NCBI GenBank assembly: GCA_003246755.1
Contig: QKDC01000102.1
Location: forward strand, 32,804-96,803
Direction of reading: 5' to 3'
Origin: Gemmatimonadota bacterium
GTDB lineage: Bacteria; Gemmatimonadota; Gemmatimonadetes; Gemmatimonadales; GWC2-71-9
Length of the DNA stretch: 64,000 nt
Made by a program: the position numbers and the translations under genes. The notes beneath the pieces are model-generated. The model saw nothing but the letters and a program-made list of their open reading frames with translations. It searched no databases and was not told the DNA's origin. Below are positions 10,142 to 60,122 of the stretch, one piece after another (the stretch's first letter is position 1; each line of letters opens with the position of its first letter).

Positions 10142-10148
10142 GCGCGCC

Positions 10149-36603: not shown

Positions 36604-36763
36604 GGTCGCGTCTCCAGGTAGTCAGAGCTCCCCTCGGTAACCGAGAGATAATGTACCCCTAGACGCGGCGGGTACCAGAAAGGTTGCAACCAGAGTTGGG
36701 GAGACCTTGCGCAGCCCTCCTGAGCGGCCGATTCTCTGTGACACCTCCACGGAACCGAGATTC

Positions 36764-39535
36764 GTGTCAGACACCATTGCGCGCCTGAATGCCGCCCTTG
36801 CCGACCGCTACCGCCTTGAAGAGAAAATCGGGGCCGGGGGGATGGCGACCGTCTACCTCGCGCATGACCTACGCCACAATCGCAAGGTGGCGCTCAAAGT
36901 CCTTCGGCCCGACCTGGCGGCCCTGATTGGTGCCGACCGCTTCCTCAAGGAGATCGAAACCACCGCCAACCTGCAGCACCCGCATATCCTCCCGCTCCAC
37001 GACTCCGGTGAGGCCAACGGTTTTCTCTATTACGTGATGCCATTCGTCGAAGGCGACACGCTGCGAGACAAGCTCACCCGGGAAAAGCAACTGAGTGTGG
37101 ACGAGGCGATCGACCTGATTCGCGGGGTCGCTGCGGCCCTCGACTACGCGCATCGCAATGGGGTGATTCACCGCGACGTCAAACCGGAGAATGTGCTGCT
37201 CCACGACGGTCAGGCCACGGTGGCCGACTTCGGGATCGCGTTGGCCGTGCGGCAGGCCGGCGGCACCCGACTCACCGAAACCGGACTCTCCATCGGCACG
37301 CCGTCCTACATGAGCCCGGAGCAGGCGATGGGCGATCGCGAACTCGACGCCCGGAGCGACATCTACTCACTCGGCGCCATGCTCTACGAAATGCTCGCTG
37401 GCGAGCCGCCGTTCGTCGGAGGGAACGCACAGGCCATCGTCGCGAAGATCCTGACCGAGGCACCACCGCTGGTGACCAAAGCGCGAGCGACGGTCCCGCC
37501 CCATGTTGCGGCGACGATCCAGAAAGCGCTGGCCAGGCTTCCCGCCGATCGTTTTTCCACCGCCGCCGACTTTACCGCCGCGCTGCTCAACCCGGGGTTT
37601 ACCACCGGAACGGTGACCAATCTCGACGGCCAGCCGAAGCGGTCGCTTTGGAACCCTTTTAGCCTGGCTGCAACGGCTGTGGCCATCGCCGCCATCGTGG
37701 TAGCGGGATGGGTGCTTCTTCGACCCATCGCCAAGCCGGTCACCCGGGTCGTGTTGGGGTTCGCCGCCGGACAACCGGTACCGGCCTACTACGGTGGACC
37801 CACCGACGACCGCCTCGCTCTCTCCCCCGATGGAACGCGACTCGTGTACCAGGTAGGTACAAACGGGGACCATTTTCTTGTCGTTCGTCACCTGGCCCAG
37901 TTGGAGGCACGGACCCTCCCCGGCACCGAGGACGGGGGGTACCCTGATATTTCCCCCGATGGCGAGCGCGTGGCCTTCTTGGATCGGGGAGGTGTGACAC
38001 CGCGTATCAAGGTCGTGTCGCTCGCCGGCGGTCCCGCCACGACGGTGGTCGAAGGGGATGTCGGCAGTCCTCCAGCCTGGAGTTCGAGGGGCGAGCTCTA
38101 TTTCCTCGACGGGAGCGGGTTCGTCGTCCGGAAGGTTTCCGCCGGAGGGGGCCCGGTTGAAGAAGTGGTGCGACTCACTCCTCCAGGCGATCTACCGGGG
38201 TCGAGAGCGGCGACCACCAACCCTACGCTTGGCCTGGGTACTGGCCAGACCTTTGGTGTCTCCACGGGGACAGGACGGTTCAATCACCCTCAGGTGCTTC
38301 CCACCGGCGGCCTGCTCTTGACGTGGGTGCCGAGGGACAATCGCGCGACCAATTTCGGCCTCTACGCCGCGGACCCGGCCACGGGAGCGACCCGCCTCCT
38401 CATGGGCGGGGCTGCCCAGGGACGCTACGCCTCCTCCGGCCATCTGGTCTACGTCACGATCAACGATCAGGACTTCTCGGGTACGCTGATGGCCGTGCGC
38501 TTCGATCTCCGGCAGATGGAGATTCGGGGTAGGCCGCTTGCCGTGACGGAGGGGCTCGACGTCCGGAACCGGGGGAATCTCGACCTCTCGATTTCCGACG
38601 ACGGGACGCTGATCTATTCGACACTGGGCGCCCCAGCCACGGAGGATTTCGTGTGGGTCTCCCGTGACGGTACGGTGGAAATGGTGGACCCAACCTGGAC
38701 CGGCTATCACGAGTTCGAGGGGCTTGCGCTCTCCCCCGACGGCACGCGGCTGGCGGTGGAATTGGCGCAGGATGGCCGGACTGATATCTGGATCAAGCAA
38801 CTCGATCGCGGGCCGCTCTCGCGGCTCACCTTCGACGGGTCGGACAACATCGATCCGTCATGGAGCACCGATGGGCGCTGGGTGAGCTTTCATTCGGTGC
38901 AAGACTCGACGCTCGGCATGTGGCGTCGGGCCGCAGATGGCAGCGGTCCCCCGGAACCGCTGTTCGACATCCAGGGGCCGACGGTCACGCGCTGGTCTCC
39001 CGACGGCGGTTGGCTCCTCGGAGTCCACTTCAGTCCCGAGGGGTCCGATGTGGTCGCGATGGAAATCGGAGTCGACAGCCAGCCTCGGCCCCTCGTGGCG
39101 GAACGGTTCAACGAAACCACACCTGCCCTTTCCCCCGATGGACGATGGCTCGCGTACGCGTCCGACGAGTCGGGGCGTCTCGAGATCTACGTCCGACCGT
39201 TCCCTGATGTCGGGTCCGGGCGGTGGCAAATTTCGACGGACGGTGGCGTGGAACCTCTCTGGGGTCCGAACGGCCGCGAACTGTTCTATCGCAGCAGCGA
39301 CGGGGACGTCGTGCAGGTTGTAGATCTTTCGCGCGGCCCCAACACGCCGATCCACATGACGCCCATCCGACCGGGTGTGACACTGGAACTGAATGATGGA
39401 GAGGTCCTCTACGCCATCTCCCCGGATGGCACACGACTGATGATGATCCAGCAGGCAGGGTCGGGCGACGCGACGGGAGACATCATCCTGGTTCGTAACT
39501 GGTTCGAAGAACTGAAGCGGCAGGTGCCCGAGTGA
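36764..39535 (+). CDS. Ser/Thr protein kinase with TM helix and periplasmic PD40/TolB-like beta-propeller
   Basis: Hanks motifs GAGGMATVYLA, VALKVL, HRDVKPEN, DFG, SPEQ. TM helix LAATAVAIAAIVVAGWVLL. Repeated SPDG(T/R/E) PD40 motifs. GTG 36764 is preferred over TTG 36707. Confidence 0.88.
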   Translation: MSDTIARLNAALADRYRLEEKIGAGGMATVYLAHDLRHNRKVALKVLRPDLAALIGADRFLKEIETTANLQHPHILPLHDSGEANGFLYYVMPFVEGDTLRDKLTREKQLSVDEAIDLIRGVAAALDYAHRNGVIHRDVKPENVLLHDGQATVADFGIALAVRQAGGTRLTETGLSIGTPSYMSPEQAMGDRELDARSDIYSLGAMLYEMLAGEPPFVGGNAQAIVAKILTEAPPLVTKARATVPPHVAATIQKALARLPADRFSTAADFTAALLNPGFTTGTVTNLDGQPKRSLWNPFSLAATAVAIAAIVVAGWVLLRPIAKPVTRVVLGFAAGQPVPAYYGGPTDDRLALSPDGTRLVYQVGTNGDHFLVVRHLAQLEARTLPGTEDGGYPDISPDGERVAFLDRGGVTPRIKVVSLAGGPATTVVEGDVGSPPAWSSRGELYFLDGSGFVVRKVSAGGGPVEEVVRLTPPGDLPGSRAATTNPTLGLGTGQTFGVSTGTGRFNHPQVLPTGGLLLTWVPRDNRATNFGLYAADPATGATRLLMGGAAQGRYASSGHLVYVTINDQDFSGTLMAVRFDLRQMEIRGRPLAVTEGLDVRNRGNLDLSISDDGTLIYSTLGAPATEDFVWVSRDGTVEMVDPTWTGYHEFEGLALSPDGTRLAVELAQDGRTDIWIKQLDRGPLSRLTFDGSDNIDPSWSTDGRWVSFHSVQDSTLGMWRRAADGSGPPEPLFDIQGPTVTRWSPDGGWLLGVHFSPEGSDVVAMEIGVDSQPRPLVAERFNETTPALSPDGRWLAYASDESGRLEIYVRPFPDVGSGRWQISTDGGVEPLWGPNGRELFYRSSDGDVVQVVDLSRGPNTPIHMTPIRPGVTLELNDGEVLYAISPDGTRLMMIQQAGSGDATGDIILVRNWFEELKRQVPE

Positions 39536-47140: not shown

Positions 47141-47668
47141 TTAGAAGTTCGCTCGAAAGCCTAATCCGAAAGGCCAGACCCAGCCGGCCTTGGTACCGAG
47201 CTCAGCCTCCTTGGTGAAGGCGATATCTCCCTGGGGGCTGATCAGGAGATCGAACTGATCCGAGAGCGCGATGGCGATTTTGGCGCCCGCGTTGATCGCG
47301 GGATAGGTGAAGCTTTCTGCCAAATCTCCGCCGAATTGGACGAGGCCGCCGCCCAGGTTGACCGTCACGGTCACCTTCTCGGAGGTGTAGAGATCGTAGC
47401 CGACCTTCCCCATCAAGTGGTAGGTGTTGATCTTCCCGGTTTCACCCTTGATGCCATGGTAGCCGACATCCCCGTCGACCATGAGGCGGATCCGGTCGCT
47501 CGCGAGATAGCCCAACCCTGCACCGAATCCAGGGCCGACTTCGGCGGCATCGGCGATCCCGAAGGTTGGCACCACGGCCACGCCGCGCGCCTCAAGGCTG
47601 AACTGCGCCTCTGCCGGACTGGCCAGCAGGGCGAAGAGTGCCAGGACTGGCAAGGACTTCTTGATCAT
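47141..47668 (-). CDS. Small outer-membrane beta-barrel protein
   Basis: ATG 47668 is preceded by AAGGAG. Signal peptide MIKKSLPVLALFALLASPAEA, alternating beta-strand pattern, and a C-terminal ..GFRANF (terminal Phe). Confidence 0.75.
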   Translation of the reverse strand: MIKKSLPVLALFALLASPAEAQFSLEARGVAVVPTFGIADAAEVGPGFGAGLGYLASDRIRLMVDGDVGYHGIKGETGKINTYHLMGKVGYDLYTSEKVTVTVNLGGGLVQFGGDLAESFTYPAINAGAKIAIALSDQFDLLISPQGDIAFTKEAELGTKAGWVWPFGLGFRANF

Positions 47669-47708
47669 ATTCCCGTTCTCCTTTGAACTCGAGTGAATCA
47701 CGACAGAA

Positions 47709-47757: not shown

Positions 47758-47786
47758 AGAATACACAACCGGAGCTTGTTTGTCAA
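47758..47786 (-). promoter_or_regulatory. Predicted sigma-70 promoter for the OM-barrel/photolyase operon
   Basis: On the minus strand: TTGACA (47786-47781), 17-nt spacer, TATTCT (47763-47758). Confidence 0.55.
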
Positions 47787-47797
47787 GCGTTTGTCTA
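47776..47797 (-). promoter_or_regulatory. Two tandem 11-bp direct repeats (candidate CarH/LitR operator)
   Basis: Minus strand TAGACAAACGC (47797-47787) followed by TTGACAAACAA (47786-47776). The second repeat is the -35 of the minus-strand promoter and both lie in the spacer of the plus-strand promoter. Confidence 0.5.
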
Positions 47798-47831: not shown

Positions 47832-49310
47832 ATGAGCAACCAGAACAGCGCGCGACGAGTGTTGGTGACGGGGGCCTCAGGCTATGTGGGCGGGCGACTT
47901 GCCCCGCGCCTCGCGGCGGCGGGGTTCGGGGTCCGGTGCTTAGCCCGGCGGCCGGAGGAACTGGCGCACCGGATGCCGGGCGGTGTCGAAGTGGTCGGCG
48001 GTGACCTGCGGGACCCCGCAGCCGCACGATCGGCGCTCGAGGGGGTGGAAAGCGCCTTTTATCTCGTGCACTCGATGGGGCGCTCCGAGCACTTCGCGTC
48101 TGAGGAGGCCGCGATGGCCACCACATTTGCCGAGGCGGCGAGGGACTCGGGTGTTCGACGTATCATCTACCTCGGCGGGCTTGGGGCTGACGGTCGGCTC
48201 TCCCCGCACCTCGCATCACGCCAACGCGTCGGGGAGTTGTTACGGGCCTCAGGTGTGCCAACCATCGAATTCCGGGCGTCGATCGTCATTGGATCCGGGA
48301 GCCTGTCGTTCGAGATGATTCGCTCGCTGGTCGAGCGGCTTCCGGTCATGGTGACCCCCCGATGGGTGAGCAAGAAGGCCCAGCCGATCGGGATCGAAGA
48401 CTTGCTGCAGTATCTGATAGCCGCGCTCGCCCTCGAGGGGTCCACGTCCGGGGTGTTCGAGATTGGGGGAAAGGACCAGGTGTCCTACCGTGACCTGCTC
48501 CTCGAATATGCTCGGCAGCGAGGGCTGCACCGCGTCATGATACCGGTACCGGTGCTGACGCCGCGTCTGTCCAGTCTCTGGCTCGCTCTCGTGACACCCG
48601 TGTACGCCAGGGTCGGGCGCCAGTTGGTCGATTCGATTCAGCACGATACCGTGGTAACCGACGAGCGAGCTCTTGCCGTTTTCCCCCTTCGACCCGCGGG
48701 CATGAGTGCTGCCATCGCCCGTGCCTTGGCCAATGAGGATCGCGAGTTTGCGGAGACGCGGTGGTCGGATGCCTTCTCATCCTCGGGGTTGTCGATGCAC
48801 TACGGTGGGGTCTCTCTCCACCGCCGCATTATCGACTCCCGGGCCATCAACGTTCCCGTTCCACCAGCTGTTGCTTTTCGACCCATCGAGCGCATCGGCG
48901 GAGCCAATGGGTGGTACTTCGCCGACTCGGTCTGGACACTCCGGGGTTGGCTCGACCTTCTCGCCGGTGGTGTTGGGATGCGCCGAGGCCGACGCGATCC
49001 CGAACAACTCGTGCCGGGAGATGCCGTGGACTGGTGGCGCGTGGAGGCCGTGGATCGCGGCGTCCGTCTCCGACTCCGGGCGGAGATGAAACTGCCCGGA
49101 CGTGCATGGTTGCAGTTCGATGTCGAAAGAGCGGAAGGGGGGAGTGTGGTCCGTCAGACGGCCCTCTTCGACCCGCGGGGCTTGCTGGGGCTCCTCTATT
49201 GGTATGCCCTCTACCCAATTCACGTGATCATCTTCCGAGGCATGCTGCGCGAGATTCAGCTGCGGGCTATCGCGCTGGCCTCGTCGACCAACTCCACAAC
49301 TTCGGTCTAG
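47832..49310 (+). CDS. Atypical SDR/NmrA-like NAD(P)-binding protein with C-terminal DUF2867-like domain
   Basis: Rossmann motif VLVTGASGYVGGRL. A ~200-aa C-terminal extension typical of SDR-DUF2867 fusions. Confidence 0.8.
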   Translation: MSNQNSARRVLVTGASGYVGGRLAPRLAAAGFGVRCLARRPEELAHRMPGGVEVVGGDLRDPAAARSALEGVESAFYLVHSMGRSEHFASEEAAMATTFAEAARDSGVRRIIYLGGLGADGRLSPHLASRQRVGELLRASGVPTIEFRASIVIGSGSLSFEMIRSLVERLPVMVTPRWVSKKAQPIGIEDLLQYLIAALALEGSTSGVFEIGGKDQVSYRDLLLEYARQRGLHRVMIPVPVLTPRLSSLWLALVTPVYARVGRQLVDSIQHDTVVTDERALAVFPLRPAGMSAAIARALANEDREFAETRWSDAFSSSGLSMHYGGVSLHRRIIDSRAINVPVPPAVAFRPIERIGGANGWYFADSVWTLRGWLDLLAGGVGMRRGRRDPEQLVPGDAVDWWRVEAVDRGVRLRLRAEMKLPGRAWLQFDVERAEGGSVVRQTALFDPRGLLGLLYWYALYPIHVIIFRGMLREIQLRAIALASSTNSTTSV

Positions 49311-50245
49311 GCGCTGACGACCAGGGCTTGGAGCACGGCTCTCAGGCTCGGCACGTCTCTCACCCATACCCCTCGAAGCTGGCGGATCGTCTCTTCGTAC
49401 GTCTGCGAAGCTTGTCCTCCCACGAGAAGTGCCACCCCCTCCCCGAGGAGTTGACCTAAGTGCATCAACTCGTCCCGGATATTCGGCGCCGTGGTCGTGA
49501 TACTGACCGCCACGGCGCGGGCGCGGGTGGCCTCGGCGACGCGGGCGATTTCCTGCGCTGGCAGGTCGCCCGAGAGGAACATGGTTCGCCAACCCTCCAA
49601 TGCCGCGACTGCGGTTACCAGGAGCGCACCCAATTCATGTCGCTGCTGAGCTGGAGTCGCGACGAGGATCAGTGGCGCCTCGTCTCCGGGTTGCAGGGTT
49701 TCCGTGAGACGCATGAGTGTCTGTCGGAGTAGCCCAGAGGCTAGGTGTTCGTAGCCCGCTGACATCTCCCCGGTATCCCAGAGTCGGCCGATCTCATACA
49801 TCAATGGGCGAGCGACGGACTCGAGGAACACCAAGGGTGGCAGGGCACTACAGGCCCGTTCGAGCCCCAGGCGCAAACGCTTCGGATCACAGGCGGTCGC
49901 CGCACCCACGACCTCTCGCAGATATGGGGTGGCGTCGTGCTCGTCAGTGCGCCCTGTCGCTGGAGTGCGGGTGCCTTCTGCCGCGCGATCCTCCGCCACG
50001 AGTTGCTGGAGTTCGGGGAGCCCCAGTCGGGCGACCTGCCCCACCCGGCGTCCAGCACCGATCGCCAACCGGATCAGGCGGAGCCGCTCCACGTCGAGAT
50101 CCGAGTACCGGCGCCGACCCGTCGTGCTCCGACCTGGGGTAACCGCCTCATAACGGCGTTCCCACGCGCGCAGGACGTCGGCCGTCAATCCCGCTCGGCG
50201 GGCCACGACCTGAATCGGGTGGCGGGGCTCGGTGGAGAATTCCAT
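49307..50245 (-). CDS. carH: MerR-HTH plus cobalamin-binding light-responsive regulator (CarH/LitR family)
   Basis: ATG 50245 gives [38 protein letters not shown] (MerR HTH). Helical bundle with W-x9-E-H ([12 protein letters not shown]). Rossmann B12 signature QRHELG..x41..SIT..x26..GG. Confidence 0.85.
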
Positions 50246-50255
50246 TTCAGAGGAC

Positions 50256-50284
50256 AAACTAGAGAAACGTACACCCTTTGTCAA
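50256..50284 (-). promoter_or_regulatory. Predicted promoter of the carH-like gene (near-leaderless)
   Basis: Minus strand TTGACA (50284-50279), 17 nt, TAGTTT (50261-50256). The ATG is only 10 nt after the -10. Confidence 0.5.
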
Positions 50285-50294
50285 ATATTGGTCT

Positions 50295-50316
50295 TTGACA
50301 AAACCTTGACAACATG
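50295..50316 (+). promoter_or_regulatory. Two tandem 11-bp direct repeats plus an inverted third copy (candidate CarH/LitR operator)
   Basis: TTGACAAAACC (50295-50305) followed by TTGACAACATG (50306-50316). An inverted copy, TTTGTCAAA, is at 50277-50285, and GACAAAC at 50253-50259. Confidence 0.55.
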
Positions 50317-50334
50317 GCATTCACTCGATATAAT
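50306..50334 (+). promoter_or_regulatory. Consensus sigma-70 promoter for the fasciclin/lipid-modification operon
   Basis: TTGACA (50306-50311), exactly 17 nt, TATAAT (50329-50334). Both hexamers match consensus perfectly in a GC-rich genome. AAAGGAG Shine-Dalgarno at 50401 before ATG 50414. Confidence 0.65.
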
Positions 50335-50413
50335 CATCGACAGGTGCTGGACAAGCTGTCTTTTCGAGCAACCGTGCTCAACATGTCGTTCAACCTCGGA
50401 AAAGGAGTTCACC

Positions 50414-50917
50414 ATGTTTCGTGCTGTCATCCCCGCTGTCGCCCTCGCTGCTCTGGGGTTTGCACCCCAGGCCGCCGTTGCCCAGACCAAGGCTCCGGCG
50501 CCGGATATCGTTGAGATTGCCGCATCTGCCGGCACCTTCAACACGCTGGTCGCCGCGGTCAAGGCCGCTGGCCTGGTCGATGTACTGAAGAGCGATGGCC
50601 CGTTCACGGTCTTTGCCCCGACCGATGAGGCGTTCGCCAAGCTCCCGGCGGGCACCGTCGAGAGTCTCCTCCTGCCGGAGAACCTCGAGCAGTTGAAGGC
50701 CGTGCTGACCTATCACGTTGTAGCCGGAAAAGTGCTCGCCAAGGATGTGGTCGGGCTCAAGACCGCCAAGACGGTGCAGGGGCAGTCGCTGACGGTCAAG
50801 ATCATGAATGGGGTACCGATGGTCGATAACGCCCAGGTGATCAAGACCGACATCATGGCCAAGAATGGCGTGATTCACGTGATCGATCAGGTCGTGTTGC
50901 CCAAGACCAACAAGTAG
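50414..50917 (+). CDS. Secreted fasciclin (FAS1) domain protein
   Basis: Signal peptide [26 protein letters not shown]1 motifs [10 protein letters not shown] and [13 protein letters not shown]. The track ORF 49937..50917 is trimmed to the ATG preceded by a Shine-Dalgarno. Confidence 0.88.
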
Positions 50918-51040
50918 TTTCCAGGGCCGCCTGCGGTGGACCGCCCTTCTCTGGTCCATCGCAGGTAGGTTCCCTCCAACTCGATATCGCCCCTCCGCTT
51001 GGGATGCGATGTCACCTGATGCACTGAGGAGACGGTGAGC

Positions 51041-51928
51041 ATGGGTTGGATCTCTCGGGTGGCCAAGTCGTTTGTCTTGTGGTTCGACACGCATGCCGTT
51101 GCTCCGGACACGATGTTGGCCAAGGACGTGGTGGACTGGTACCGCGTGATCCCCTTCATCGCCGTGCACGTGGCCTGTCTCGGTGTGATCTGGGTGGGAT
51201 GGAGCTGGACAGCGGTCGCAATCGCGGCGGGTCTCTACGCCGTGCGCATGTTCGCCATTACGGGGTTCTACCACCGGTACTTTTCACACCGCACCTTCCA
51301 GACCTCTCGCCTGACGCAATTCATCTTCGCCCTCCTGGGTGCCAGCTCGGCTCAGCGGGGTCCGCTCTGGTGGGCTGCCCATCATCGAAAGCACCACAGA
51401 CACTCGGACACCGAGCTCGATGTGCACTCCCCTGGGCAGCATGGCTTCTGGTGGAGTCACATGGGGTGGATCACGGCGCCGGGCAACTTCCCCACGGACC
51501 TGAACGAGGTGCGGGATCTCGCGAAGTATCCCGAACTACGCTTCCTGGATCGTTTCGATATCCTGGTTCCGGCCGCACTGGCCGCGACCCTGTTCCTGCT
51601 GGGCGGTGCGCAGTGGCTGATCTGGGGATTCTTCGTGAGCACCGTTGTGTTGTTCCACTGTACCTGCTTCATCAACTCGCTGGCACATCAACTCGGGACG
51701 CAACGCTACGATACCGGCGACCACAGCCGCAACAGCTTCTTGTTGGCCCTCGTCACCTTCGGGGAGGGGTGGCACAACAACCACCACAAGTATCCCGGGG
51801 CAGCACGTCAGGGATTCTTCTGGTGGGAAATCGATCTCACCTACTACGGTCTCTGGCTACTGGCGCGGCTGAGAATCATCTCCGATCTGCGGGGGGTGCC
51901 ACACCGTCTCCTCCAAGCACGCTCCTGA
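51041..51928 (+). CDS. Membrane acyl-lipid/acyl-CoA fatty acid desaturase (three-His-box)
   Basis: His boxes HRYFSHR, HRKHHRHSD and HNNHHKYP. ATG 51041 follows GAGGAG; the track start GTG 51035 is also possible. Confidence 0.88.
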   Translation: MGWISRVAKSFVLWFDTHAVAPDTMLAKDVVDWYRVIPFIAVHVACLGVIWVGWSWTAVAIAAGLYAVRMFAITGFYHRYFSHRTFQTSRLTQFIFALLGASSAQRGPLWWAAHHRKHHRHSDTELDVHSPGQHGFWWSHMGWITAPGNFPTDLNEVRDLAKYPELRFLDRFDILVPAALAATLFLLGGAQWLIWGFFVSTVVLFHCTCFINSLAHQLGTQRYDTGDHSRNSFLLALVTFGEGWHNNHHKYPGAARQGFFWWEIDLTYYGLWLLARLRIISDLRGVPHRLLQARS

Positions 51929-53157
51929 TGCGGATTGCGATCGTGGGGAGTGGGGTATCGGGCCTGATCGCGGGGTACCTGTTGTACCCCATGCATGACG
52001 TGACCGTGTTCGAGGCCGATTCGAGGATCGGTGGCCACGTCAACACGATCCCGGTGACGATCGACGGGAATGTCTGGCCCGTGGATACAGGATTCATTGT
52101 CTACAACGAACGCAACTACCCCCTCTTCACCAGGCTGCTGGCGCGACTCGGTGTCGAGACCCAGGCGTCTTCCATGGGGTTCAGCGTCCGCTGTGCCAGC
52201 ACGGGACTGGAGTACAACGGGTCGAGTCTTCGACAGCTGTTTGTCCAACCTCACAATCTCTTGCGCCCGCGATTCTATCGCATGCTGCGGGACATCCTCC
52301 GCTTCAATCGCGAGGCCCCGCGGGACGTGGCCGGCGGGACCGCAGCGACCATTCTGGGCGACTACCTGCAGGCTGGGGGGTATGGGCGGGAGGTGAGGGA
52401 CCACTACCTCGTCCCCATGGGCTCCGCATTGTGGTCGATGCCGCGGAAGAGCGTCACCGAGATGCCGACAGCGTTCTTCGTGCGGTTCTTCGAGCAACAC
52501 GGAATGCTCACCGTGGATGATCGACCCGAATGGCGCGTCGTGACCGGGGGCTCGGACCGCTACGTGAAGGCTCTGACCGCCGGATTCGGCGAGGCGATTC
52601 GCACCCGGTCACCCGTGCACGAGATTCGTCGCGCAATAGACCATGTTCGGGTGAATGGCGAGCGCTTCGATCAGGTGATTCTCGCCTGCCATGCCGATCA
52701 GGCTTTGGAAATGCTGGCGGATCCGTCACCCGCCGAAAGCGAGATTCTCGGGAGCTTCCCCTATCAACACAACGAGGCACTGCTCCACACCGATACCTCA
52801 ATACTTCCCAGCCGATCGCGTGCGTGGGGCGCCTGGAACTACTACCTCCGTGGTGATGCTGAGTCGGCTGCGACCGTGACCTATGACATGAACATCCTCC
52901 AGACCCTCTCCGCCCCCGAGACGTTCTGCGTGTCGCTCAACGCCGAGGACATCGTCGATCCGGCAAGGGTGTTGCACCGGGTGGCGTACACCCATCCCCA
53001 ATACACTGCCAAGGGACACGCAGCACAGGCACGTCGCGCCGAAATCAGCGGCCGAAGGTGCACGCATTACTGTGGCGCCTACTGGGGGTTTGGATTTCAT
53101 GAGGATGGTGTGCGGAGCGGGGTCGAGGCAGCGAAAGGGTTCGGGGCAGACCTGTGA
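51928..53157 (+). CDS. NAD/FAD-binding oxidoreductase (amine-oxidase/COG2907-like)
   Basis: MRIAIVGSGVSGLIAGYLL..VFEADSRIGGH dinucleotide-binding motif. The ATG overlaps the desaturase stop (TGATG). The N-terminal part of track ORF 51046..53157 is an out-of-context extension. Confidence 0.85.
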   Translation: MRIAIVGSGVSGLIAGYLLYPMHDVTVFEADSRIGGHVNTIPVTIDGNVWPVDTGFIVYNERNYPLFTRLLARLGVETQASSMGFSVRCASTGLEYNGSSLRQLFVQPHNLLRPRFYRMLRDILRFNREAPRDVAGGTAATILGDYLQAGGYGREVRDHYLVPMGSALWSMPRKSVTEMPTAFFVRFFEQHGMLTVDDRPEWRVVTGGSDRYVKALTAGFGEAIRTRSPVHEIRRAIDHVRVNGERFDQVILACHADQALEMLADPSPAESEILGSFPYQHNEALLHTDTSILPSRSRAWGAWNYYLRGDAESAATVTYDMNILQTLSAPETFCVSLNAEDIVDPARVLHRVAYTHPQYTAKGHAAQARRAEISGRRCTHYCGAYWGFGFHEDGVRSGVEAAKGFGADL

Positions 53158-53912
53158 AAAGTCGACTCTACATCGGAGCCGTCCGACACCGTCGGTTTCA
53201 CCCAGTGCCCCACGCATTCCGCTACCCCCTCTTCATGCTCTATCTGGACCTGGCGGAACTCCCCGTGGTGTTCGACGGGCGCTGGCTCTGGTCGGCCAGA
53301 CGCCCCGCTCCAGCCTGGTTTCGCCGAGCCGACTACCTCGGCGACGCAGCCGTACCGCTGGCCGACGCGGTGCGCAATACCGTATCGGCACATGGGGGCA
53401 AGCCACCCACCGGACCGATCCGGATGCTCACCCACCTCCGGTACTTCGGGTACGTACAGAACCCGGTCACCCTCTACTACTGCTTCGACACGGACGACCG
53501 TTCCGTCGATACGATCGTGGCGGAGATCACCAACACCCCGTGGGGTGAGCGGCACGCCTATGTCCTGACGCGCGAGGACAATCTGGGGAAGAACGGAGTG
53601 CAGCGGTTCCGGTTCGAGAAGGCATTCCATGTCTCCCCGTTCATGGCCATGGATCACCAGTATGATTGGCGGTTCAACGAACCGGGACGACGGCTGGTGG
53701 TACATATGGAAAACCGTCAGGCCGGCTCGAAGATCTTCGACGCCACCTTGGCGTTACGACGGGAGGCAATGACGGGTCGTGCGCTGGCGTCCGCGCTCGC
53801 GCGCTATCCCTGGATCACGGCGCGGGTAGCCCTGGGGATCTACTGGCAAGCACTGCGGTTGGGGATCAAGCGGGTCCCCTTCCACACGCATCCACGAAAG
53901 CAGGTTACATGA
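53154..53912 (+). CDS. DUF1365 family protein
   Basis: MKSRLYIGAVRHRRFHPVPHAFRYPLFMLYLDLAEL is the characteristic DUF1365 N-terminus. GTGA overlap with the upstream stop. Confidence 0.85.
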   Translation: MKSRLYIGAVRHRRFHPVPHAFRYPLFMLYLDLAELPVVFDGRWLWSARRPAPAWFRRADYLGDAAVPLADAVRNTVSAHGGKPPTGPIRMLTHLRYFGYVQNPVTLYYCFDTDDRSVDTIVAEITNTPWGERHAYVLTREDNLGKNGVQRFRFEKAFHVSPFMAMDHQYDWRFNEPGRRLVVHMENRQAGSKIFDATLALRREAMTGRALASALARYPWITARVALGIYWQALRLGIKRVPFHTHPRKQVT

Positions 53913-55144
53913 GATTGCTCCAGGAGCTCACGGAAAGGGCAGTCCGTCAACGCTTGCACCGATTGACACATGGAAGACTCACACTCAACTACGAGACTTC
54001 CACCACGGTCTTCGGTCAGGGCAACGGTCCGGCGGTCAGTGTGACAGTCCACGACTCCGCCTTCTTCACCGCACTCGCCTTCGGAGGGCACCTCGGTGCC
54101 GCCGAGGCCTACATCGACGGGGCATGGGAAACCGACGACCTCACCAGTTTGGTACAGCTCTTTCTCAAGAACCGCGATGTCCTCGACGGACTGGAGCGGG
54201 GGTGGGCCCGTCTCGTGCAACCGGTGCGGAAAGCACTCCACGCGTTGAGCCGAAACTCCCGGTCCGGGAGTCGTCGTAACATTCGGGCACACTACGACCT
54301 CGGCAACGAGTTCTTCGCACTCTTCCTCGACGACACGCTCACCTACTCCTGCGGCGTCTTCGAGCACGAGAGCAGCACCATGCGGGACGCCTCCGTGGCC
54401 AAGTACGACCGGCTCTGTCGCAAGCTGGAGTTGTCGCCGGAAGATCATGTTCTGGAAATCGGCACCGGGTGGGCCGGTTTCGCCGTACACGCGGCGAGTA
54501 CGTATGGTTGCCGGCTTACGACCACGACGATCTCCGAGCAACAGTATCAACTTGCGATCAAGCGCGTCGCCGACGCCGGACTCACGGATCAGGTCACCGT
54601 CCTGCGGCAAGATTACCGCGACCTCGAGGGTAGCTTCGACAAACTCGTCTCCATCGAGATGATCGAGGCGGTCGGGCATCAATACTTCGACACCTACTTT
54701 GCACAGTGCGCGCGCCTCCTCAAGCCGCATGGTCTCGCGGCGATCCAGGCGATCACCATCCAGGACCGGTACTACGATTCCGCGCGTCGCGAGGTGGACT
54801 TCATCAAGCGCTACATTTTTCCGGGCAGCTGCATTCCCGCCGTGTCCGTCCTGGCGGCATCGGCCGCGCGTACCGATCTCCGGTTGGTGCACCTCGATGA
54901 CATCACACCCCACTACGCCGAGACACTCCGGCTCTGGCGGAACCGATTCGTCGCGAACTGGGACCGCATCAAGGCCTTAGGGTTCTCGGCTGAATTCAAA
55001 CGACTCTGGGAGTTCTACTTCTGCTACTGCGAAGGCGGATTCCGCGAAGCCGTGCTGGGTGACGTGCAACTGCTGTTCGCCAAGCCCGCCGCGCGTCCTG
55101 CACTGGCAAGGCCTGGAGCCACATCGGTGGTCACCCCCGCATGA
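53909..55144 (+). CDS. Cyclopropane-fatty-acyl-phospholipid synthase family SAM methyltransferase
   Basis: CMAS family: HYDLGNEFFALFLD, SAM motif VLEIGTGWAGFA, C-terminal FYFCYCEGGF. ATGA overlap with DUF1365. Confidence 0.9.
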   Translation: MRLLQELTERAVRQRLHRLTHGRLTLNYETSTTVFGQGNGPAVSVTVHDSAFFTALAFGGHLGAAEAYIDGAWETDDLTSLVQLFLKNRDVLDGLERGWARLVQPVRKALHALSRNSRSGSRRNIRAHYDLGNEFFALFLDDTLTYSCGVFEHESSTMRDASVAKYDRLCRKLELSPEDHVLEIGTGWAGFAVHAASTYGCRLTTTTISEQQYQLAIKRVADAGLTDQVTVLRQDYRDLEGSFDKLVSIEMIEAVGHQYFDTYFAQCARLLKPHGLAAIQAITIQDRYYDSARREVDFIKRYIFPGSCIPAVSVLAASAARTDLRLVHLDDITPHYAETLRLWRNRFVANWDRIKALGFSAEFKRLWEFYFCYCEGGFREAVLGDVQLLFAKPAARPALARPGATSVVTPA

Positions 55145-55911
55145 TATCACTCGTCCTCATCGGGTGGGCGGTGCTCGCGGTCGCCCTCGGCCTGCTCTGG
55201 GCCCGTCAGTTGGTCACTAAGAATGCCACCAGTGTCGACGTTGCCTGGTCGGGTGGACTGGCATTTCTGGCTGGGTACTACGCGTGGTTCGCCGAGGGCG
55301 ACACCACCCGCCGGGCGCTGGTGGGAACCCTCGCCGGACTCTGGGCCCTGCGACTGGCATGGCATCTCCTGAGTGATCGTGTGTTGCGACACACGGAGGA
55401 AGACGGTCGCTATCGCGCGCTTCGGGCGGAGTGGGGGTCGCGTGCCGGACGGAACTTCTTCTTCTTCTACCAAGCCCAGGCGGCAGTGGCCGTGCTGTTT
55501 TCCCTCCCCATCCTCGCGGCGATGCGCGGAGGAGCCGTGGATACACTCGCCTGGGCTGGGGTGTTGATATGGTTCGTTGCCGTCGGTGGCGAGACGTTGG
55601 CCGACCACCAACTCGCGCGTTTCAGGGCTGATCCGACGAACCGGGGTCACGTCTGTCAGACGGGTCTTTGGCGCTACTCGCGACACCCGAACTACTTCTT
55701 CGAGTGGGTCCACTGGTGGGCCTACGTTGTGATTGGCACAGGCGCCTGGCTCACCTGGACCGGTCCTGTGCTGATGCTCCTCTTTCTCTTTCGACTCACC
55801 GGGATCCCTTACACCGAACAGCAGGCGCTCCGCAGTCGAGGGGACCGCTATCGCGAGTATCAGCGCACCACGAGCGTGTTCATCCCCTGGTTCCCCCGGA
55901 AGTCGTCGTGA
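55141..55911 (+). CDS. DUF1295 family membrane protein (steroid-reductase/ICMT-like fold)
   Basis: Multi-TM protein with GLWRYSRHPNYFFEWVHWW. ATGA overlap with the upstream gene. Confidence 0.85.
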   Translation: MISLVLIGWAVLAVALGLLWARQLVTKNATSVDVAWSGGLAFLAGYYAWFAEGDTTRRALVGTLAGLWALRLAWHLLSDRVLRHTEEDGRYRALRAEWGSRAGRNFFFFYQAQAAVAVLFSLPILAAMRGGAVDTLAWAGVLIWFVAVGGETLADHQLARFRADPTNRGHVCQTGLWRYSRHPNYFFEWVHWWAYVVIGTGAWLTWTGPVLMLLFLFRLTGIPYTEQQALRSRGDRYREYQRTTSVFIPWFPRKSS

Positions 55912-56954
55912 GTCCCGCACTCGGTGTTGCCTTGGCCGAACGCGGACTGGTGCCGCTTCCTGGGCTTCGGCTCGGTATCCGTCGACTTCTGGTCGAGCGG
56001 CTTCGGGAGCAAGCCGGGGCGCCCGGTATCGAAGACTTTCTCCGCGAACTCGAACGCGCTCCGATTGCGCTCCAGCCGGAGAAGGCCAACCAACAGCATT
56101 ACGAAGTGCCGCCGGCGTTCTTCGAACTCGTGCTCGGCCCACATCTCAAGTACAGCGGCGCCTACTGGCCCGAGGGGACTCGGGACCTCGGGGAGGCAGA
56201 AGCTCGCATGCTCGCCCTGACGTGTGAGCGTGCCGAGCTTGCCGATGGTCAAGCCATCCTGGAGTTGGGTTGCGGATGGGGATCACTGACGCTGTACATG
56301 GCCCGGCAGTTCCCGGCGAGTCGGATCGTCGCGGTATCCAACTCTGCCCCGCAACGACGGTTCATCGAGGCTCGGGCACCAGACAACGTCGAAGTCATCA
56401 CCGCCGATATGAACACATTTGCGACGGATCGCCGGTTCGACCGTGTGGTGAGCGTCGAAATGTTCGAGCACATGCGGAACCATCGCGAATTGCTGCGGCG
56501 CATTGCAGGGTGGCTCGGCGAGGATGGCAGGCTCTTCGTGCATGTGTTCTGCCATCACACATACGCCTACCTGTTCGAGACTGACGGCGAACACGACTGG
56601 ATGGGCCGGTTTTTCTTCACCGCCGGTCTCATGCCGTCCTATGACATGCTGCCTCGGATCGATGGCGACCTCGAACTCGACGCGCGGTGGCCCGTGAACG
56701 GTATTCACTACGCCAGGACGGCTGCGGCGTGGCGAATCAATCTCGAGAGACGTCGTCTGGAGGTAATGCACGTGTTGCGGGACACCTACGGAGGCGACGC
56801 CGAGCGTTGGTACCACCGTTGGCGACTCTTCTTCCTTGCCTGCGAGGAGCTGTTCGCCTATCACGACGGTGAGGAGTGGTTCGTAGGCCACTACCGTTTT
56901 CGGCCGCGCCTGCAACCCGAGTGTGGCCAGAGCACCCAGCCCGCTGATCCATGA
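55908..56954 (+). CDS. Second CMAS-family SAM-dependent methyltransferase
   Basis: GTG 55908 (GTGA overlap). ANQQHYEVPPAFFELVLGPHLKYSGAYW, SAM motif ILELGCGWGSLTLYMA, C-terminal WRLFFLACEELF. Confidence 0.85.
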   Translation: MSPALGVALAERGLVPLPGLRLGIRRLLVERLREQAGAPGIEDFLRELERAPIALQPEKANQQHYEVPPAFFELVLGPHLKYSGAYWPEGTRDLGEAEARMLALTCERAELADGQAILELGCGWGSLTLYMARQFPASRIVAVSNSAPQRRFIEARAPDNVEVITADMNTFATDRRFDRVVSVEMFEHMRNHRELLRRIAGWLGEDGRLFVHVFCHHTYAYLFETDGEHDWMGRFFFTAGLMPSYDMLPRIDGDLELDARWPVNGIHYARTAAAWRINLERRRLEVMHVLRDTYGGDAERWYHRWRLFFLACEELFAYHDGEEWFVGHYRFRPRLQPECGQSTQPADP

Positions 56955-57415
56955 CCTCAAACCTGCTCGAGCGTCGACAAGTGCTTCCCGCGCCCCTGGA
57001 AGAAGTGTTCGCCTTCTTCAAGGACCCGCTCAACCTGAGCATCATCACCCCGCCATGGCTCAATTTTCGTGTGCGCCGGATGACCGATCCGGTCGTGCGA
57101 CGTGGAACCAGGATCGGCTATGACATCAGGTGGATGGGCTTGCCCATGCGATGGGAGTCGGTCATCGCCGAGTACATCGAAGGGGAGCGGTTTGCCGACG
57201 AGATGATTCGAGGACCCTACACCCACTGGTATCATCTCCACTCCTTCCGCCGCGTGCCGAATGGCACCGAAGTGGGCGACCGGGTGGATTACGAACTACC
57301 GCTCGGCCCGGTCGGGAGGCTGGCACACCGTGTTCTGGTCCGCCGGCAACTCGAAGGGATCTTCGACTTCCGCAGGCGCCGATTGGAAAAGATCTTCCCG
57401 AAAGATCCGGGATAG
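56951..57415 (+). CDS. SRPBCC (START/cyclase-dehydrase-like) lipid-binding family protein
   Basis: 154 aa with VFAFFKDPLNLSIITPPWLNF..GPYTHWYHLHSF, typical of the COG4276-type SRPBCC. ATGA overlap with the upstream gene. Confidence 0.75.
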   Translation: MTSNLLERRQVLPAPLEEVFAFFKDPLNLSIITPPWLNFRVRRMTDPVVRRGTRIGYDIRWMGLPMRWESVIAEYIEGERFADEMIRGPYTHWYHLHSFRRVPNGTEVGDRVDYELPLGPVGRLAHRVLVRRQLEGIFDFRRRRLEKIFPKDPG

Positions 57416-57491: not shown

Positions 57492-60122
57492 GTGACAGAA
57501 CCCCGGACCCGTCTCGATGCGGCCCTCGCCGACCGCTACCGCCTGGAGCGGGAACTCGGTGCCGGTGGGATGGCCACCGTCTATCTCGCCGAGGACCTCA
57601 AGCACGATCGCAAGGTGGCTGTGAAAGTGCTGCGACCCGAACTCGCGGCCGTGATCGGTGCCGAGCGGTTCCTGCAGGAGATCAAACTCACCGCCAACCT
57701 GCAGCATCCCCATATCCTGCCGCTGCATGACTCGGGGGAGGCCGACAGCTTCCTCTATTACGTCATGCCTTACGTGGAGGGAGAGTCACTCCGGGACAAA
57801 CTCAATCGGGAGAAGCAGTTCGGGGTGGACGAGGCGGTCCGCCTGGCCACCCAGGTCGCGGCGGCGCTCGACTACGCGCACCGGCAGGGCGTGGTCCATC
57901 GGGACATCAAGCCGGAGAACGTCCTGATCCACGATGGCAACGCACAGGTGGCGGATTTCGGGATCGCGCTCGCCGTGAGTGCCGCCGGCAGCAGCCGGAT
58001 GACCGAAACCGGGATGAGCATAGGGACGCCGCAGTACATGAGTCCCGAACAGGCGATGGGGGATCGCGAACTCGACGCCCGAAGTGACATCTATTCCCTT
58101 GCCGCGATGCTCTACGAGATGCTGACCGGTGACCCTCCCTACACGGGGAGCACCGCGCAGGCGATCGTGGCCAAGGTGATCACCGAAAAGGCTCCGCCGG
58201 TGCGCCTGCATCGCGAAACAGTACCCGCCCATGTGTCCGCCGCCATCTCCCATGCGTTGAACAAGCTGCCCGCCGACCGGTTCGCGAGTGCCGCCGACTT
58301 CGCGGATGCTCTGGTTCGACCCGGAGCCATGGGGGCTCTGGCAGACACCAATTCGGAAGCCCCGGTCGCTCAGGTGGCACGACGTCCCTGGTGGCACGTG
58401 GCGGGCGCGCTCGTGCTCGGCGGTGCAGCAACAGCTGTGGCGATGCTCTTCCTCCTCCGCGAGCCGGCCGTTCCCGGTCAGGTCACGCGATTTGAGGTTG
58501 CGCACGATGAGATTGCGCTGCGCTTCTCGGTCAGCCCGGCACTCGCGCTTTCGCCCGACGGATCCCGGCTCGTCTTCCCGGGCAGCGAGGGGCTCTACCT
58601 CCGGGACATGGACAAGTTGGAGATCCGACTCCTTCCCGCGACCGAAAACGCAGTGAATGTCTCTTTCTCCCCCGACGGTGAGTGGATCCTTTACGATCAG
58701 AGCAACGAATTGAAGAAGGTTCGCCTTGCTGGTGGGGGCGCCATCACGCTGGCTCGAGGTATCGCTCGGGGAGCGTCGTGGGGCCCCGACGGCACGATCG
58801 CATACGCCAGTCCGGGTGGCGACCTGGTGCAAATGACAGACGCCGGGGCCAACCCGCGAGTCATCACACGGCCCGACACCGCCCAAGGTGAGGTAGAACA
58901 CCGCTATCCTGATGTCCTGCCTGCAGGTCGGGGTGTGCTCCTGACGGTGTGGAAGCAAGCTGCGCAGGATGCGCACATTGCGGTGTACGACGCCAATGCC
59001 GGCATGGTCAAAGACCTCGGCCCTGGCATCAGCGCACGCTATGTCGAGAGTGGATTCATCATGTACGGCGATCCCGTGGGTGGGGCCCTCCTCGCGGCCC
59101 CCTTCGACCTCGAACGCCTGGAAATGGGGAGTCCCGTGCCGGTCCTCGAGGGAGTGTCGATGACGACTGCGGTCGGGGGGCTCCATGCGACGGTTTCACG
59201 GTCGGGCGCCCTCGCCTATCTGACCGGGGCGCAGCGTGGCTCCAACCTCCTCAGAGTGGACCGTCGTGGGACGGCGGTCTCCCTCACCGAAGAGAAAAGG
59301 GGCTTCTGGGAACCTCGTTTTTCGCCCGATGGGCGACGCATCGCCGTGCGAGTGGGCGGGGAAAATGACGACATTTGGATCTATGACCTCGAAGGGAAAA
59401 CCCAGACCCGACTGACCGTGGAGGGGTCGAATCAGGACCCTGCGTGGACTCCCGATGGGCAGCGCGTGACCTTCTCTTCGGAGCGCAACGGGGTCAGGGG
59501 AATCTTCACACGGCCCTGGGATGGGAGCGCGGCCGCCGAGTCGTTGGTGACCGTCACGTTCCCGCAGGTGCATGCTGGAGGCTGGGCACCGGACGGGTCG
59601 TTGTTCGTCTATCGAGTCGTGGTCGATGCCGGCAACCGCGATCTTTATACCGTGGCTTCGACCGGTGGTTCGCCCACCCCGTTCCTCTCGACGGACTTCG
59701 ATGAGACCGCGCCTCAGATCTCTCCGAATGGCAGGTGGCTCGCTTACCAATCGAACGAATCGGGTCGCTTCGAGGTCTACGTGCGTCCCTTCCCGGGCGG
59801 AGGTGGCAGGATCCCGATTTCGACCAACGGCGGTGTTGAAGCGGTCTGGGGACCCGACGGCAAGGAGTTGTTCTACATCAACAACGACGGTGATCTGATC
59901 AGCGTCCAGGTCGAGTCGGCAGGCGCCTTCCGGGTCGGAGAGCGGGTTCCCATGTTCAGCGTCTCGGACTACAACCGACGCATCGTCGACGTCAACTACG
60001 ACATCTCCCCCGACGGTCAGTCGTTCGTGATGATGCGGGCGGAGGGCTCAGCCCGCGGCCTGATCCTGGTGCAGAACTGGATCGAGGAGGTACGACAAGC
60101 CGTCGGGCCAAGCGGCCGCTGA
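57492..60122 (+). CDS. Ser/Thr protein kinase with TM helix and PD40/TolB-like beta-propeller (paralog of 36764..39535)
   Basis: GTG 57492 gives VTEPRTRLDAALADRYRLERELGAGGMATVYLA. HRDIKPEN, DFG, SPEQ. TM helix ALVLGGAATAVAMLFLL. Repeated SPDG motifs. Confidence 0.88.
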   Translation: MTEPRTRLDAALADRYRLERELGAGGMATVYLAEDLKHDRKVAVKVLRPELAAVIGAERFLQEIKLTANLQHPHILPLHDSGEADSFLYYVMPYVEGESLRDKLNREKQFGVDEAVRLATQVAAALDYAHRQGVVHRDIKPENVLIHDGNAQVADFGIALAVSAAGSSRMTETGMSIGTPQYMSPEQAMGDRELDARSDIYSLAAMLYEMLTGDPPYTGSTAQAIVAKVITEKAPPVRLHRETVPAHVSAAISHALNKLPADRFASAADFADALVRPGAMGALADTNSEAPVAQVARRPWWHVAGALVLGGAATAVAMLFLLREPAVPGQVTRFEVAHDEIALRFSVSPALALSPDGSRLVFPGSEGLYLRDMDKLEIRLLPATENAVNVSFSPDGEWILYDQSNELKKVRLAGGGAITLARGIARGASWGPDGTIAYASPGGDLVQMTDAGANPRVITRPDTAQGEVEHRYPDVLPAGRGVLLTVWKQAAQDAHIAVYDANAGMVKDLGPGISARYVESGFIMYGDPVGGALLAAPFDLERLEMGSPVPVLEGVSMTTAVGGLHATVSRSGALAYLTGAQRGSNLLRVDRRGTAVSLTEEKRGFWEPRFSPDGRRIAVRVGGENDDIWIYDLEGKTQTRLTVEGSNQDPAWTPDGQRVTFSSERNGVRGIFTRPWDGSAAAESLVTVTFPQVHAGGWAPDGSLFVYRVVVDAGNRDLYTVASTGGSPTPFLSTDFDETAPQISPNGRWLAYQSNESGRFEVYVRPFPGGGGRIPISTNGGVEAVWGPDGKELFYINNDGDLISVQVESAGAFRVGERVPMFSVSDYNRRIVDVNYDISPDGQSFVMMRAEGSARGLILVQNWIEEVRQAVGPSGR

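Follow-up and report, generated by a model that had tools for sequence, protein, structure and literature searches.

A candidate light-inducible operon for furan fatty acid synthesis in a Gemmatimonadota genome

Results

A block of seven chained lipid genes

We analyzed a 64,000-nucleotide stretch of a Gemmatimonadota genome (assembly GCA_003246755.1, contig QKDC01000102.1, positions 32,804 to 96,803; hereafter, the window), the portion of the genome inspected here, and focused on seven genes (g1 to g7) at positions 51041-57415. The block is probably a light-inducible operon that makes methylated furan fatty acids (FuFAs) on pre-existing membrane acyl chains. FuFAs are potent scavengers of membrane radicals and singlet oxygen, and their biosynthesis has been proven in two alphaproteobacteria only. 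The locus is an uncharacterized member of the known FuFA and photo-oxidative-stress lipid module.

An earlier note on this DNA, made from the sequence alone, had proposed a lipid-modifying operon of the FuFA type, and the gene families and synteny described below support that proposal. Families were assigned by Pfam and NCBIfam profile searches, and solved relatives are PDB matches. The seven open reading frames (ORFs) and six overlap junctions listed in the note were confirmed at their coordinates, and Pfam reproduced all seven family assignments.

51041-57415, forward strand: seven-gene block g1 to g7, with six start/stop overlaps
51041-51928, forward strand: g1, stearoyl-CoA desaturase (SCD)/delta-9-type membrane di-iron fatty-acid desaturase, 295 aa (FA_desaturase, 64 bits)
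51928-53157, forward strand: g2, UfaD-type FAD/NAD-binding fatty-acyl desaturase, 409 aa (Amino_oxidase, 81 bits, and NAD_binding_8)
53154-53912, forward strand: g3, UfaO-type DUF1365 protein, 252 aa (PF07103, 284 bits, residues 5-248)
53909-55144, forward strand: g4 (CMAS1), two-domain CMAS-family S-adenosylmethionine (SAM) methyltransferase, UfaM-type candidate, 411 aa (CMAS, 279 bits)
55141-55911, forward strand: g5, DUF1295 polytopic membrane protein, 256 aa (DUF1295, 229 bits)
55908-56954, forward strand: g6 (CMAS2), single-domain CMAS-family methyltransferase of the coclaurine-N-methyltransferase/LIME1/FufM-like branch, 348 aa (CMAS, 133 bits)
56951-57415, forward strand: g7, small SRPBCC (START-like) protein, 154 aa (Polyketide_cyc2, 30.5 bits against a cutoff of 27.4; Polyketide_cyc, 28.7 bits)

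UfaD and UfaO correspond to g2 and g3

The earlier note had left open which genes correspond to UfaD and UfaO; judged by domains and synteny, UfaD is g2 and UfaO is g3. DUF1365 is the domain of UfaO, and RSP1090/RPA2570 closes the furan ring using O2, while UfaD (RSP1091/RPA2571) is an NAD/FAD-binding, phytoene-desaturase-like protein that makes the methyl-diene (Lemke 2020, PMC7380195). The DUF1365 protein is g3, and the NAD/FAD-binding flavoprotein directly upstream of it is g2, which matches RSP1091 and RPA2571 in position and domain type. The N-terminus of g2 reads MRIAIVG and that of RPA2571, taken from a published cloning primer, MRVAIV. No solved structure for g3 was found among PDB entries.

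To place the block among its relatives, species-representative genomes were scanned for g3 relatives, which gave 320 loci. The best 80 of the 320 were fetched (53-69% identical to g3), and synteny was counted over subsets of these: 68, 73, or the 46 with wide flanks. UfaD adjoins the DUF1365 gene in 67/68 loci, and a g1 homologue lies directly upstream of UfaD in 46/68.

The g1 protein carries the three His boxes of SCD/delta-9-type desaturases, HRYFSH (78), HRKHH (115) and HNNHH (245), in the forms HX4H, HX2HH and HX2HH, along with two long hydrophobic blocks. Among solved structures it is closest to the acyl-CoA desaturases SCD1 4ymk (91 bits) and 4zyo (84 bits), and its NCBIfam DesA equivalog score is 76 bits against a cutoff of 400. 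Because UfaD is described as an NAD/FAD-binding, phytoene-desaturase-like flavoprotein, this His-box desaturase is not UfaD.

Two methyltransferases of different branches

The methyltransferases g4 and g6 share 25% identity. The best PDB match of g4 is the E. coli cyclopropane fatty acid synthase (CFAS) 6bqc (189 bits), and g4 is 34% identical to E. coli Cfa; it nevertheless scores below all NCBIfam Cfa equivalog cutoffs (265 vs 400 for PRK11705, 282 vs 600 for CPFASynBruc, 221 vs 650 for CfaB). CMAS1 lies directly downstream of UfaO in 70/73 loci, and the position of g4 is that of ufaM (RPA2569) in Rhodopseudomonas palustris.

The ligand set for bicarbonate in Cfa (C139, E239, H266, I268, Y317) is incomplete in both proteins, with H266 replaced by Gln in g4 and with C139 replaced by Gly and I268 by Phe in g6. 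All 73 aligned members (g4 and 72 UfaO-adjacent orthologues) have Gln at the H266 position, as do the Legionella and Ensifer plasmid copies. This site is His in three solved cyclopropane fatty acid (CFA) synthases and in CmaA1, and Gln in MmaA4, a hydroxymycolate synthase that does not cyclopropanate. Since the g4 clade shares Gln with MmaA4, which is the one comparator, the residue argues, short of proof, that these enzymes are methylases rather than cyclopropane synthases, and Gln in place of His may be a signature that sets methylases apart from cyclopropane synthases.

The second methyltransferase, g6, scores 223 bits against the coclaurine N-methyltransferase 6gkv and 91 bits against the E. 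coli CFAS, and reaches 140 of the 400 bits of the Cfa equivalog cutoff. We take LIME1 to lie in the coclaurine-N-methyltransferase-like plant branch. Reported identities of FufM are 37.9% to Arabidopsis LIME1 (PMC10940516) and 26% to UfaM (Lemke 2020, PMC7380195). The alternative annotation of Chlamydomonas CFA2/CPLD27 as a coclaurine N-methyltransferase (PMC4067076) is consistent with the LIME1 branch placement. The characterized UfaM, UfaD, UfaO and FufM (Q3J4I7, Q3IYV7, Q3IYV8 and Q6NBA4) were likened to the genes by position, domain type and reported identities. On the basis of their different branches, identities and PDB scores, g4 is a UfaM-type candidate and g6 a FufM-like candidate.

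The earlier note had suggested dimethylated furan as a different product of the block. With g6 in the FufM/LIME1/coclaurine branch a dimethylated furan is plausible; it would not be a different product, since dimethyl-FuFA has already been described (FufM).

Accessory proteins g5 and g7

Hydrophobic segments are present in g5, and weaker Pfam matches to Steroid_dh, ICMT and PEMT suggest an ene-reductase-like or methyltransferase-like fold family; UsgR, an ene-reductase, has been described as DUF1295-like. DUF1295 probably works with the FufM-like enzyme, as natural fusions suggest (see below). The small protein g7, which among PDB entries weakly matches the N-terminal domain of 3oh8, is presumed to be a lipid binder. 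The pathway roles of the desaturase, DUF1295 and SRPBCC proteins are unproven. The accessory genes remain unstudied, with a single paper in the literature searched naming both DUF1365 and DUF1295.

Start/stop overlaps are conserved across phyla

At the g1/g2 junction (TGATG, 51926-51930), the TGA stop of g1 and the ATG of g2 share 1 nt, which puts the g2 start at 51928. Overlaps of 4 nt make up the remaining five junctions: GTGA at 53154-53157, ATGA at 53909-53912, ATGA at 55141-55144, GTGA at 55908-55911 and ATGA at 56951-56954. The start of g2 is anchored by a Rossmann motif from residue 1-5 (MRIAIVGSG), and those of g3 and g5 by the DUF1365 and DUF1295 matches from residues 5 and 19, respectively. 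For g6 the start is the NCBI and Logan call for a 100% identical protein (P0001).

When genes in the window were called crudely, 11 of 28 same-strand neighbor pairs had an overlap of 1 or 4 nt available, six of these pairs lying beyond the block; the run of six overlaps is by itself notable but not extraordinary. In homologous loci, the overlap is kept at UfaD-UfaO in 58/74, UfaO-CMAS1 in 43/72, CMAS1-DUF1295 in 18/21, DUF1295-CMAS2 in 14/16, CMAS1-CMAS2 in 18/22 and Des-UfaD in 25/46. Tight coupling is thus a conserved property of the operon, because the same junctions overlap in loci of other phyla. The conserved overlaps, together with the natural fusions, are compatible with, but no demonstration of, the fixed stoichiometry or membrane complex suggested in the earlier note.

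Six long antisense ORFs had no Pfam match, a result that also holds for 50390-51274, and intrinsic terminators inside and after the block were not more numerous than in shuffled sequences. The spacer between g7 and the following kinase gene folds no better than shuffles. An anti-phage defense function was considered and rejected, as PADLOC returned only generic methyltransferase or Rossmann matches.

A CarH-type repressor, candidate operator and fasciclin gene lie upstream

The regulatory context of the block, comprising a CarH repressor, its candidate operator and a fasciclin gene, was absent from the earlier note. The features are as follows.

49307-50320, reverse strand: carH/litR ORF, light-responsive repressor with a MerR helix-turn-helix and B12-binding domains (Pfam MerR_1, B12-binding_2, B12-binding)
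50278-50353, no strand assigned: promoter/operator region, with a consensus sigma-70 promoter and overlapping TTGACA/GACA repeats spaced by 11 bp
50414-50917, forward strand: secreted fasciclin-domain protein (Fasciclin, 137 bits) with a signal-peptide-like N-terminus
50923-50975, forward strand: stable GC-rich hairpin of ~15 bp without a U-tract, between the fasciclin stop and g1

For carH, translation more likely starts at the ATG at 50245 than at the ORF end at 50320. The protein matches Thermus CarH 5c8d/3whp with 77 bits, its W-x9-EH motif is aligned, and its QRHELG matches ERHEIG, which holds the axial His. It thus combines the MerR helix-turn-helix with a B12 module of the class I type, that of adenosylcobalamin (AdoCbl)-dependent CarH, and AdoCbl-CarH may act as the light switch of this locus. 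No ChrR-type anti-sigma gene was found near the block. The only Rfam hit was RNase P, elsewhere in the window, and the leader gave no match to a riboswitch or any other kind of structured RNA.

The fasciclin gene is divergent from carH, is separated from g1 by a 123-nt spacer and is the probable first gene of the transcription unit. On the forward strand, TTGACA (50306-11) and TATAAT (50329-34), 17 nt apart, form the sole 12/12 promoter match in the 9 kb scanned; the divergent reverse-strand promoter has its -35 box TTGTCA at 50312-07, overlapping the forward -35. Repeats are found as TTGACA at 50295 and 50306 (11 bp apart), GACA at 50339 and 50350 (11 bp apart) and inverted TTGTCA at 50278. 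The candidate operator region next to carH holds the sole zero-mismatch tandem TTGACA in the 64 kb. The divergent carH/fasciclin pair (reverse and forward strand, respectively) recurs in five loci (L018, L030, L052, L069 and L070), and the repeat layout recurs in five other carH-fasciclin spacers. In Thermus and Myxococcus, CarH operators are built as tandem 11-bp repeats over a -35 box, from which we infer dark repression and light induction here.

The 131-nt segment 50915-51045, which spans the hairpin, folds with -59.4 kcal/mol (z = -3.15), and GC-rich hairpins are also found in the equivalent spacer of L018, L030 and L070. The hairpin could set the ratio of fasciclin to enzyme expression or stabilize the mRNA.

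A second near-perfect TTGACA-N5-TTGACA site (1 mismatch; 47781-47797, reverse strand) lies between an outer-membrane beta-barrel gene (47141-47701, reverse strand) and an NmrA/DUF2867 gene resembling short-chain dehydrogenases/reductases (SDRs; 47832-49310, forward strand). The latter is convergent with carH, with 4 nt common at their 3' ends (49307-49310). In L052 and L069, the NmrA/DUF2867 gene is found inside the CarH-divergent unit, directly after fasciclin. It is probably a further member of the light regulon and may correspond to RSP1087, an SDR.

Conservation, synteny and natural fusions

The best 80 loci are mostly from Gemmatimonadota metagenome-assembled genomes (MAGs), with others labeled in their records as Acidobacteriota, Gammaproteobacteria/Burkholderiales, Planctomycetota, Nitrospiraceae, SAR324 and Lentisphaeria. 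Across these 80 genomes, which span many phyla, the UfaD-UfaO-CMAS core keeps its synteny. Among the 46 wide-flank loci, CMAS2 is present in 34, DUF1295 in 20, CarH in 13 and SRPBCC in 3; the desaturase, UfaD, UfaO and both methyltransferases occur together in 22. The complete seven-gene set in identical order was found in one other locus only, a Gemmatimonadales MAG (L070).

The earlier note had called the enzyme set richer than the described bacterial FuFA steps, but it is not unusually rich: the same families occur together in many phyla and are co-induced by singlet oxygen in Chlamydomonas. The extra operon genes RSP1089-1087 of Rhodobacter (Cereibacter) sphaeroides are dispensable for FuFA synthesis. 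The locus is not exceptional, as the extended gene set is widely found in uncultured bacteria.

In Proteobacteria, the gene order is LitR-CMAS2-x-DUF1295-DUF6134-lipocalin-Des-UfaD-UfaO-CMAS1. SRPBCC is replaced there by DUF6134 and lipocalin in Burkholderiales (L065, 4606-5812) and by DUF2878 and DUF2177 in Legionella lytica (L097, 9969-11663); DUF2177 is on the Chlamydomonas singlet-oxygen list and is also found near heliorhodopsins. Annotated versions are found in cultured bacteria. A Legionella lytica plasmid carries genes for an FAD oxidoreductase, DUF1365, a CFAS-family protein, DUF2878, DUF1295, DUF2177, a hypothetical protein, an SDR and a photolyase, in this order. On Azospirillum and Aminobacter plasmids, sigmaE-ChrR adjoins the UfaD/UfaO pair.

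An exhaustive fusion search with g6 as the query revealed DUF1295+CMAS2 fusions in four separate 50%-identity clusters (P0125, P0132, P0135 and P0255). Fusions of CMAS1+CMAS2 and of Amino_oxidase (UfaD)+CMAS1+CMAS2 were also found, as was a single 1840-aa protein with DUF1365+Amino_oxidase+CMAS+CMAS (that is, UfaO+UfaD+CMAS+CMAS); P0149, P0196, P0172, P0194 and P0243 are other proteins of the fusion set. Some of the long fusions could be merged gene models. Of the evidence at the sequence level, the natural fusions argue most strongly for a single pathway of g2, g3, g4, g5 and g6 and for DUF1295 working with the FufM-like enzyme.

Homologue names were uninformative, being 'cyclopropane-fatty-acyl-phospholipid synthase (family)' or 'SAM-dependent methyltransferase' throughout. 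A metagenome scan with the primer-derived 21-nt start of RPA0924 returned 13 matches, all attributable to chance, with no FufM gene among them, and 0 of 270 retrieved proteins start with MSGLAS or end with RLKPA.

A proposed route from light to furan

In the dark, AdoCbl-bound CarH would sit on the tandem 11-bp repeats over the -35 boxes of the two back-to-back promoters. In the light, CarH would be released, and the promoter at 50306-50334 would drive the fasciclin gene and then, through the 123-nt spacer, g1 to g7, whose translation would be coupled by termination-reinitiation at the overlaps. The O2-dependent g1 would make a cis-monoene, to which g4 would add a methyl group from SAM with a shift of the double bond, giving a methyl-branched trans-alkene. 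This would be converted by g2 (UfaD) to a conjugated methyl-diene, and g3 (UfaO) would insert an oxygen derived from O2, closing the furan ring. The FufM-like g6 could then methylate the furan to the dimethyl form. Both g5 and g7 would be accessory, g5 working with g6 and g7 probably handling the lipid. In the membrane, the FuFAs formed would act as quenchers of radicals and singlet oxygen.

Discussion

Points that weigh against a furan product and alternative explanations

Several points weigh against FuFA synthesis under CarH control. No FuFA from Gemmatimonadota was found in the literature searched. The regiospecificity and substrate of g1 are not fixed by its sequence, the candidate CarH operator was compared with the CarH consensus by eye, and transcription through the hairpin-containing spacer into g1 is a presumed step. 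The assignment of g4 and g6 as orthologues rests on position, branch membership and proxies rather than on alignment to the characterized proteins. Plant fusions of UfaD and CMAS are known cyclopropane synthases, and family membership leaves the product unfixed. In R. sphaeroides, UfaM is encoded elsewhere and RSP1089, a CMAS protein in the position of g4, is dispensable for FuFA (PMC7380195); position alone is no proof that g4 is UfaM, because RSP1089 has that position without being UfaM.

The block may instead make non-furan lipids, such as cyclopropane, mid-chain methyl-branched or conjugated-diene species, with g4 as a cyclopropane or methylene synthase, g5 as a saturating ene-reductase and the UfaD- and UfaO-like proteins in other roles. 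The plant fusions just mentioned would fit this explanation, as would the CFA synthases that are the closest solved relatives of g4, the dispensability of RSP1089 and the resemblance of DUF1295 to UsgR and to steroid 5-alpha reductases. We consider it unlikely, given that g4 and its 72 orthologues lack the His ligand and have Gln as in MmaA4, and that g4 scores under the Cfa equivalog cutoffs. Two further points speak against it: the constant pairing with UfaD and UfaO, for which no functions other than the two steps that follow methylation have been demonstrated, and the joining of UfaO, UfaD and two CMAS domains in a single polypeptide.

Another explanation, which we hold to be improbable, is that g4 is an RSP1089-type paralogue outside FuFA synthesis, with UfaM encoded elsewhere in the genome, and that g1, g5, g6 and g7 form a separate, co-regulated lipid module for photo-oxidative stress. 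R. sphaeroides provides the precedent, with its unlinked UfaM and dispensable RSP1089-1087. Moreover, CMAS2-DUF1295 stands apart from Des-UfaD-UfaO-CMAS1 in Proteobacteria, with DUF6134 and lipocalin between them, and DUF1295 is also found near rhodopsin genes without ufa genes. In R. palustris, however, ufaM directly follows ufaO, and in Pseudomonas syringae the cfa that ends a phrB-to-cfa locus with UfaD and UfaO homologues (PSPTO_1118, 1117, 1116) is the best match of RSP2144. The CMAS1+CMAS2 and UfaD+CMAS1+CMAS2 fusions further tie both methyltransferases to UfaD. The 64 kb inspected leave room for an unlinked UfaM.

It is very improbable that the overlaps and clustering merely reflect a compact high-GC genome and that the promoter and operator are chance matches with no CarH-controlled unit: short overlaps are common in the window, shuffled versions of the 9-kb region contain 1.5 +/- 1.3 promoter-like matches each and a looser tandem pattern (<=2 mismatches) gives 2.1 chance matches per window, but overlaps are kept at the same junctions across phyla, the 12/12 promoter and the zero-mismatch tandem TTGACA coincide next to carH, the repeat layout recurs in five other spacers, and carH adjoins the block in 13/46 loci. 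Each of the three explanations is less well supported than FuFA synthesis by the block.

Implications

If FuFAs are indeed the product, the seven genes would be a compact cassette for heterologous FuFA production; the locus opens no new field. The same core is widespread in uncultured phyla, often with the desaturase, the FufM-like methylase and DUF1295. A bolder and rather doubtful extension is that the block by itself converts saturated membrane acyl chains, in a light-gated manner, to an undescribed FuFA-type lipid. The chain position set by g1 would differ from that in the 9M5/9D5 species derived from cis-vaccenate, and DUF1295, as partner of the FufM-like methylase, would catalyze a further step, for example ene-reduction or modifying the furan or diene a second time. 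If true, FuFA synthesis would for the first time be linked to AdoCbl-CarH control, and DUF1295 would gain its first function.

Surroundings of the block in the window

The window carries dnaN and dnaA beside yidC and mnmE (4827-7565, reverse strand; 8441-11477, forward strand), as well as an RNase P RNA (2756-3139, forward strand; 285 bits). It thus lies at or near the chromosomal replication origin, because dnaA and dnaN are present. Three Ser/Thr protein kinase genes are found on the forward strand (79-2724, 36707-39535 and 57492-60122), two with C-terminal PD40 beta-propeller repeats and one with TPR. One of them starts 76 nt after g7, and no connection with the lipid operon was found.

A cell-surface signaling unit at 28643-32732 comprises a FecI-type extracytoplasmic function (ECF) sigma factor (32163-32732), a FecR-type anti-sigma factor (31072-32097) and a TonB-dependent receptor with STN (28643-30997). 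This ECF sigma factor, the only one in the window, pairs with a FecR-type protein, unlike the ChrR-type pair of the alphaproteobacterial ufa genes.

Comparison with known systems

In R. palustris CGA009, RPA2571 (ufaD), RPA2570 (ufaO) and RPA2569 (ufaM) are adjacent and RPA0924 (fufM) is unlinked, the functions having been established by genetics and by in vitro work (PMC7380195). Flavoprotein, DUF1365 and CMAS methylase follow one another as they do here, and both systems have a second, distant CMAS methylase (~25-26% identical). The second methylase of R. palustris makes dimethyl furan, and the steps take place on phospholipid acyl chains and need O2. The block studied here differs in having the second methylase within the operon, an SCD-type desaturase as the first gene, DUF1295 and SRPBCC, and apparent AdoCbl-CarH control.

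The sigmaE-ChrR regulon of R. sphaeroides includes RSP1091-1087 and RSP2143-2144 (phrB-ufaM) (Dufour 2008; Nam 2013, PMC3546557; Lemke 2020). The order UfaD-UfaO-CMAS here equals RSP1091-1090-1089, and small accessory genes are present in both; the R. sphaeroides genes are induced by photo-oxidative stress. There, the accessory genes encode a lipoprotein and an SDR and UfaM is unlinked, whereas here they encode DUF1295, SRPBCC and a desaturase, with no ChrR nearby.

Light or singlet oxygen controls the same families through LitR in Pseudomonas, sigmaE-ChrR in Rhodobacter and P. syringae, and SAK1 in Chlamydomonas. The class II LitR of Pseudomonas putida/mendocina controls phrB, ufaM and an FAD oxidoreductase (PMC9758184). 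The LitR/CarH regulons are like the locus described here in the MerR-family light regulator beside ufa-type genes and the divergent promoters, and would also share with it the operator over the -35 box and the autoregulation of the regulator. Pseudomonas LitR is of class II and acts via LOV proteins, whereas the regulator here has the class I W-x9-EH and His motifs.

In Chlamydomonas, the SAK1 singlet-oxygen response co-induces CFA1, CFA2, DUF1365, DUF1295 and a fasciclin-like gene (PMC4067076), and Arabidopsis has UFAM/UFAD1, UFAO1 and LIME1/FUFM1 at lipid droplets (PMC10940516). The same families are thus co-induced or co-localized in these eukaryotes, with CFA1 being CMAS1-like and CFA2/CPLD27 coclaurine-N-methyltransferase-like. 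The eukaryotic genes are dispersed or fused and have no demonstrated product, whereas here they form one operon.

Finally, g4 shares the two-domain fold family, the SAM motifs and the equivalents of E239 and Y317 with E. coli Cfa and the mycolic-acid methyltransferases. Unlike Cfa, g4 does not reach the equivalog cutoffs and carries Gln at the H266 site, and g6 has Gly at C139 and is without the N-terminal domain.

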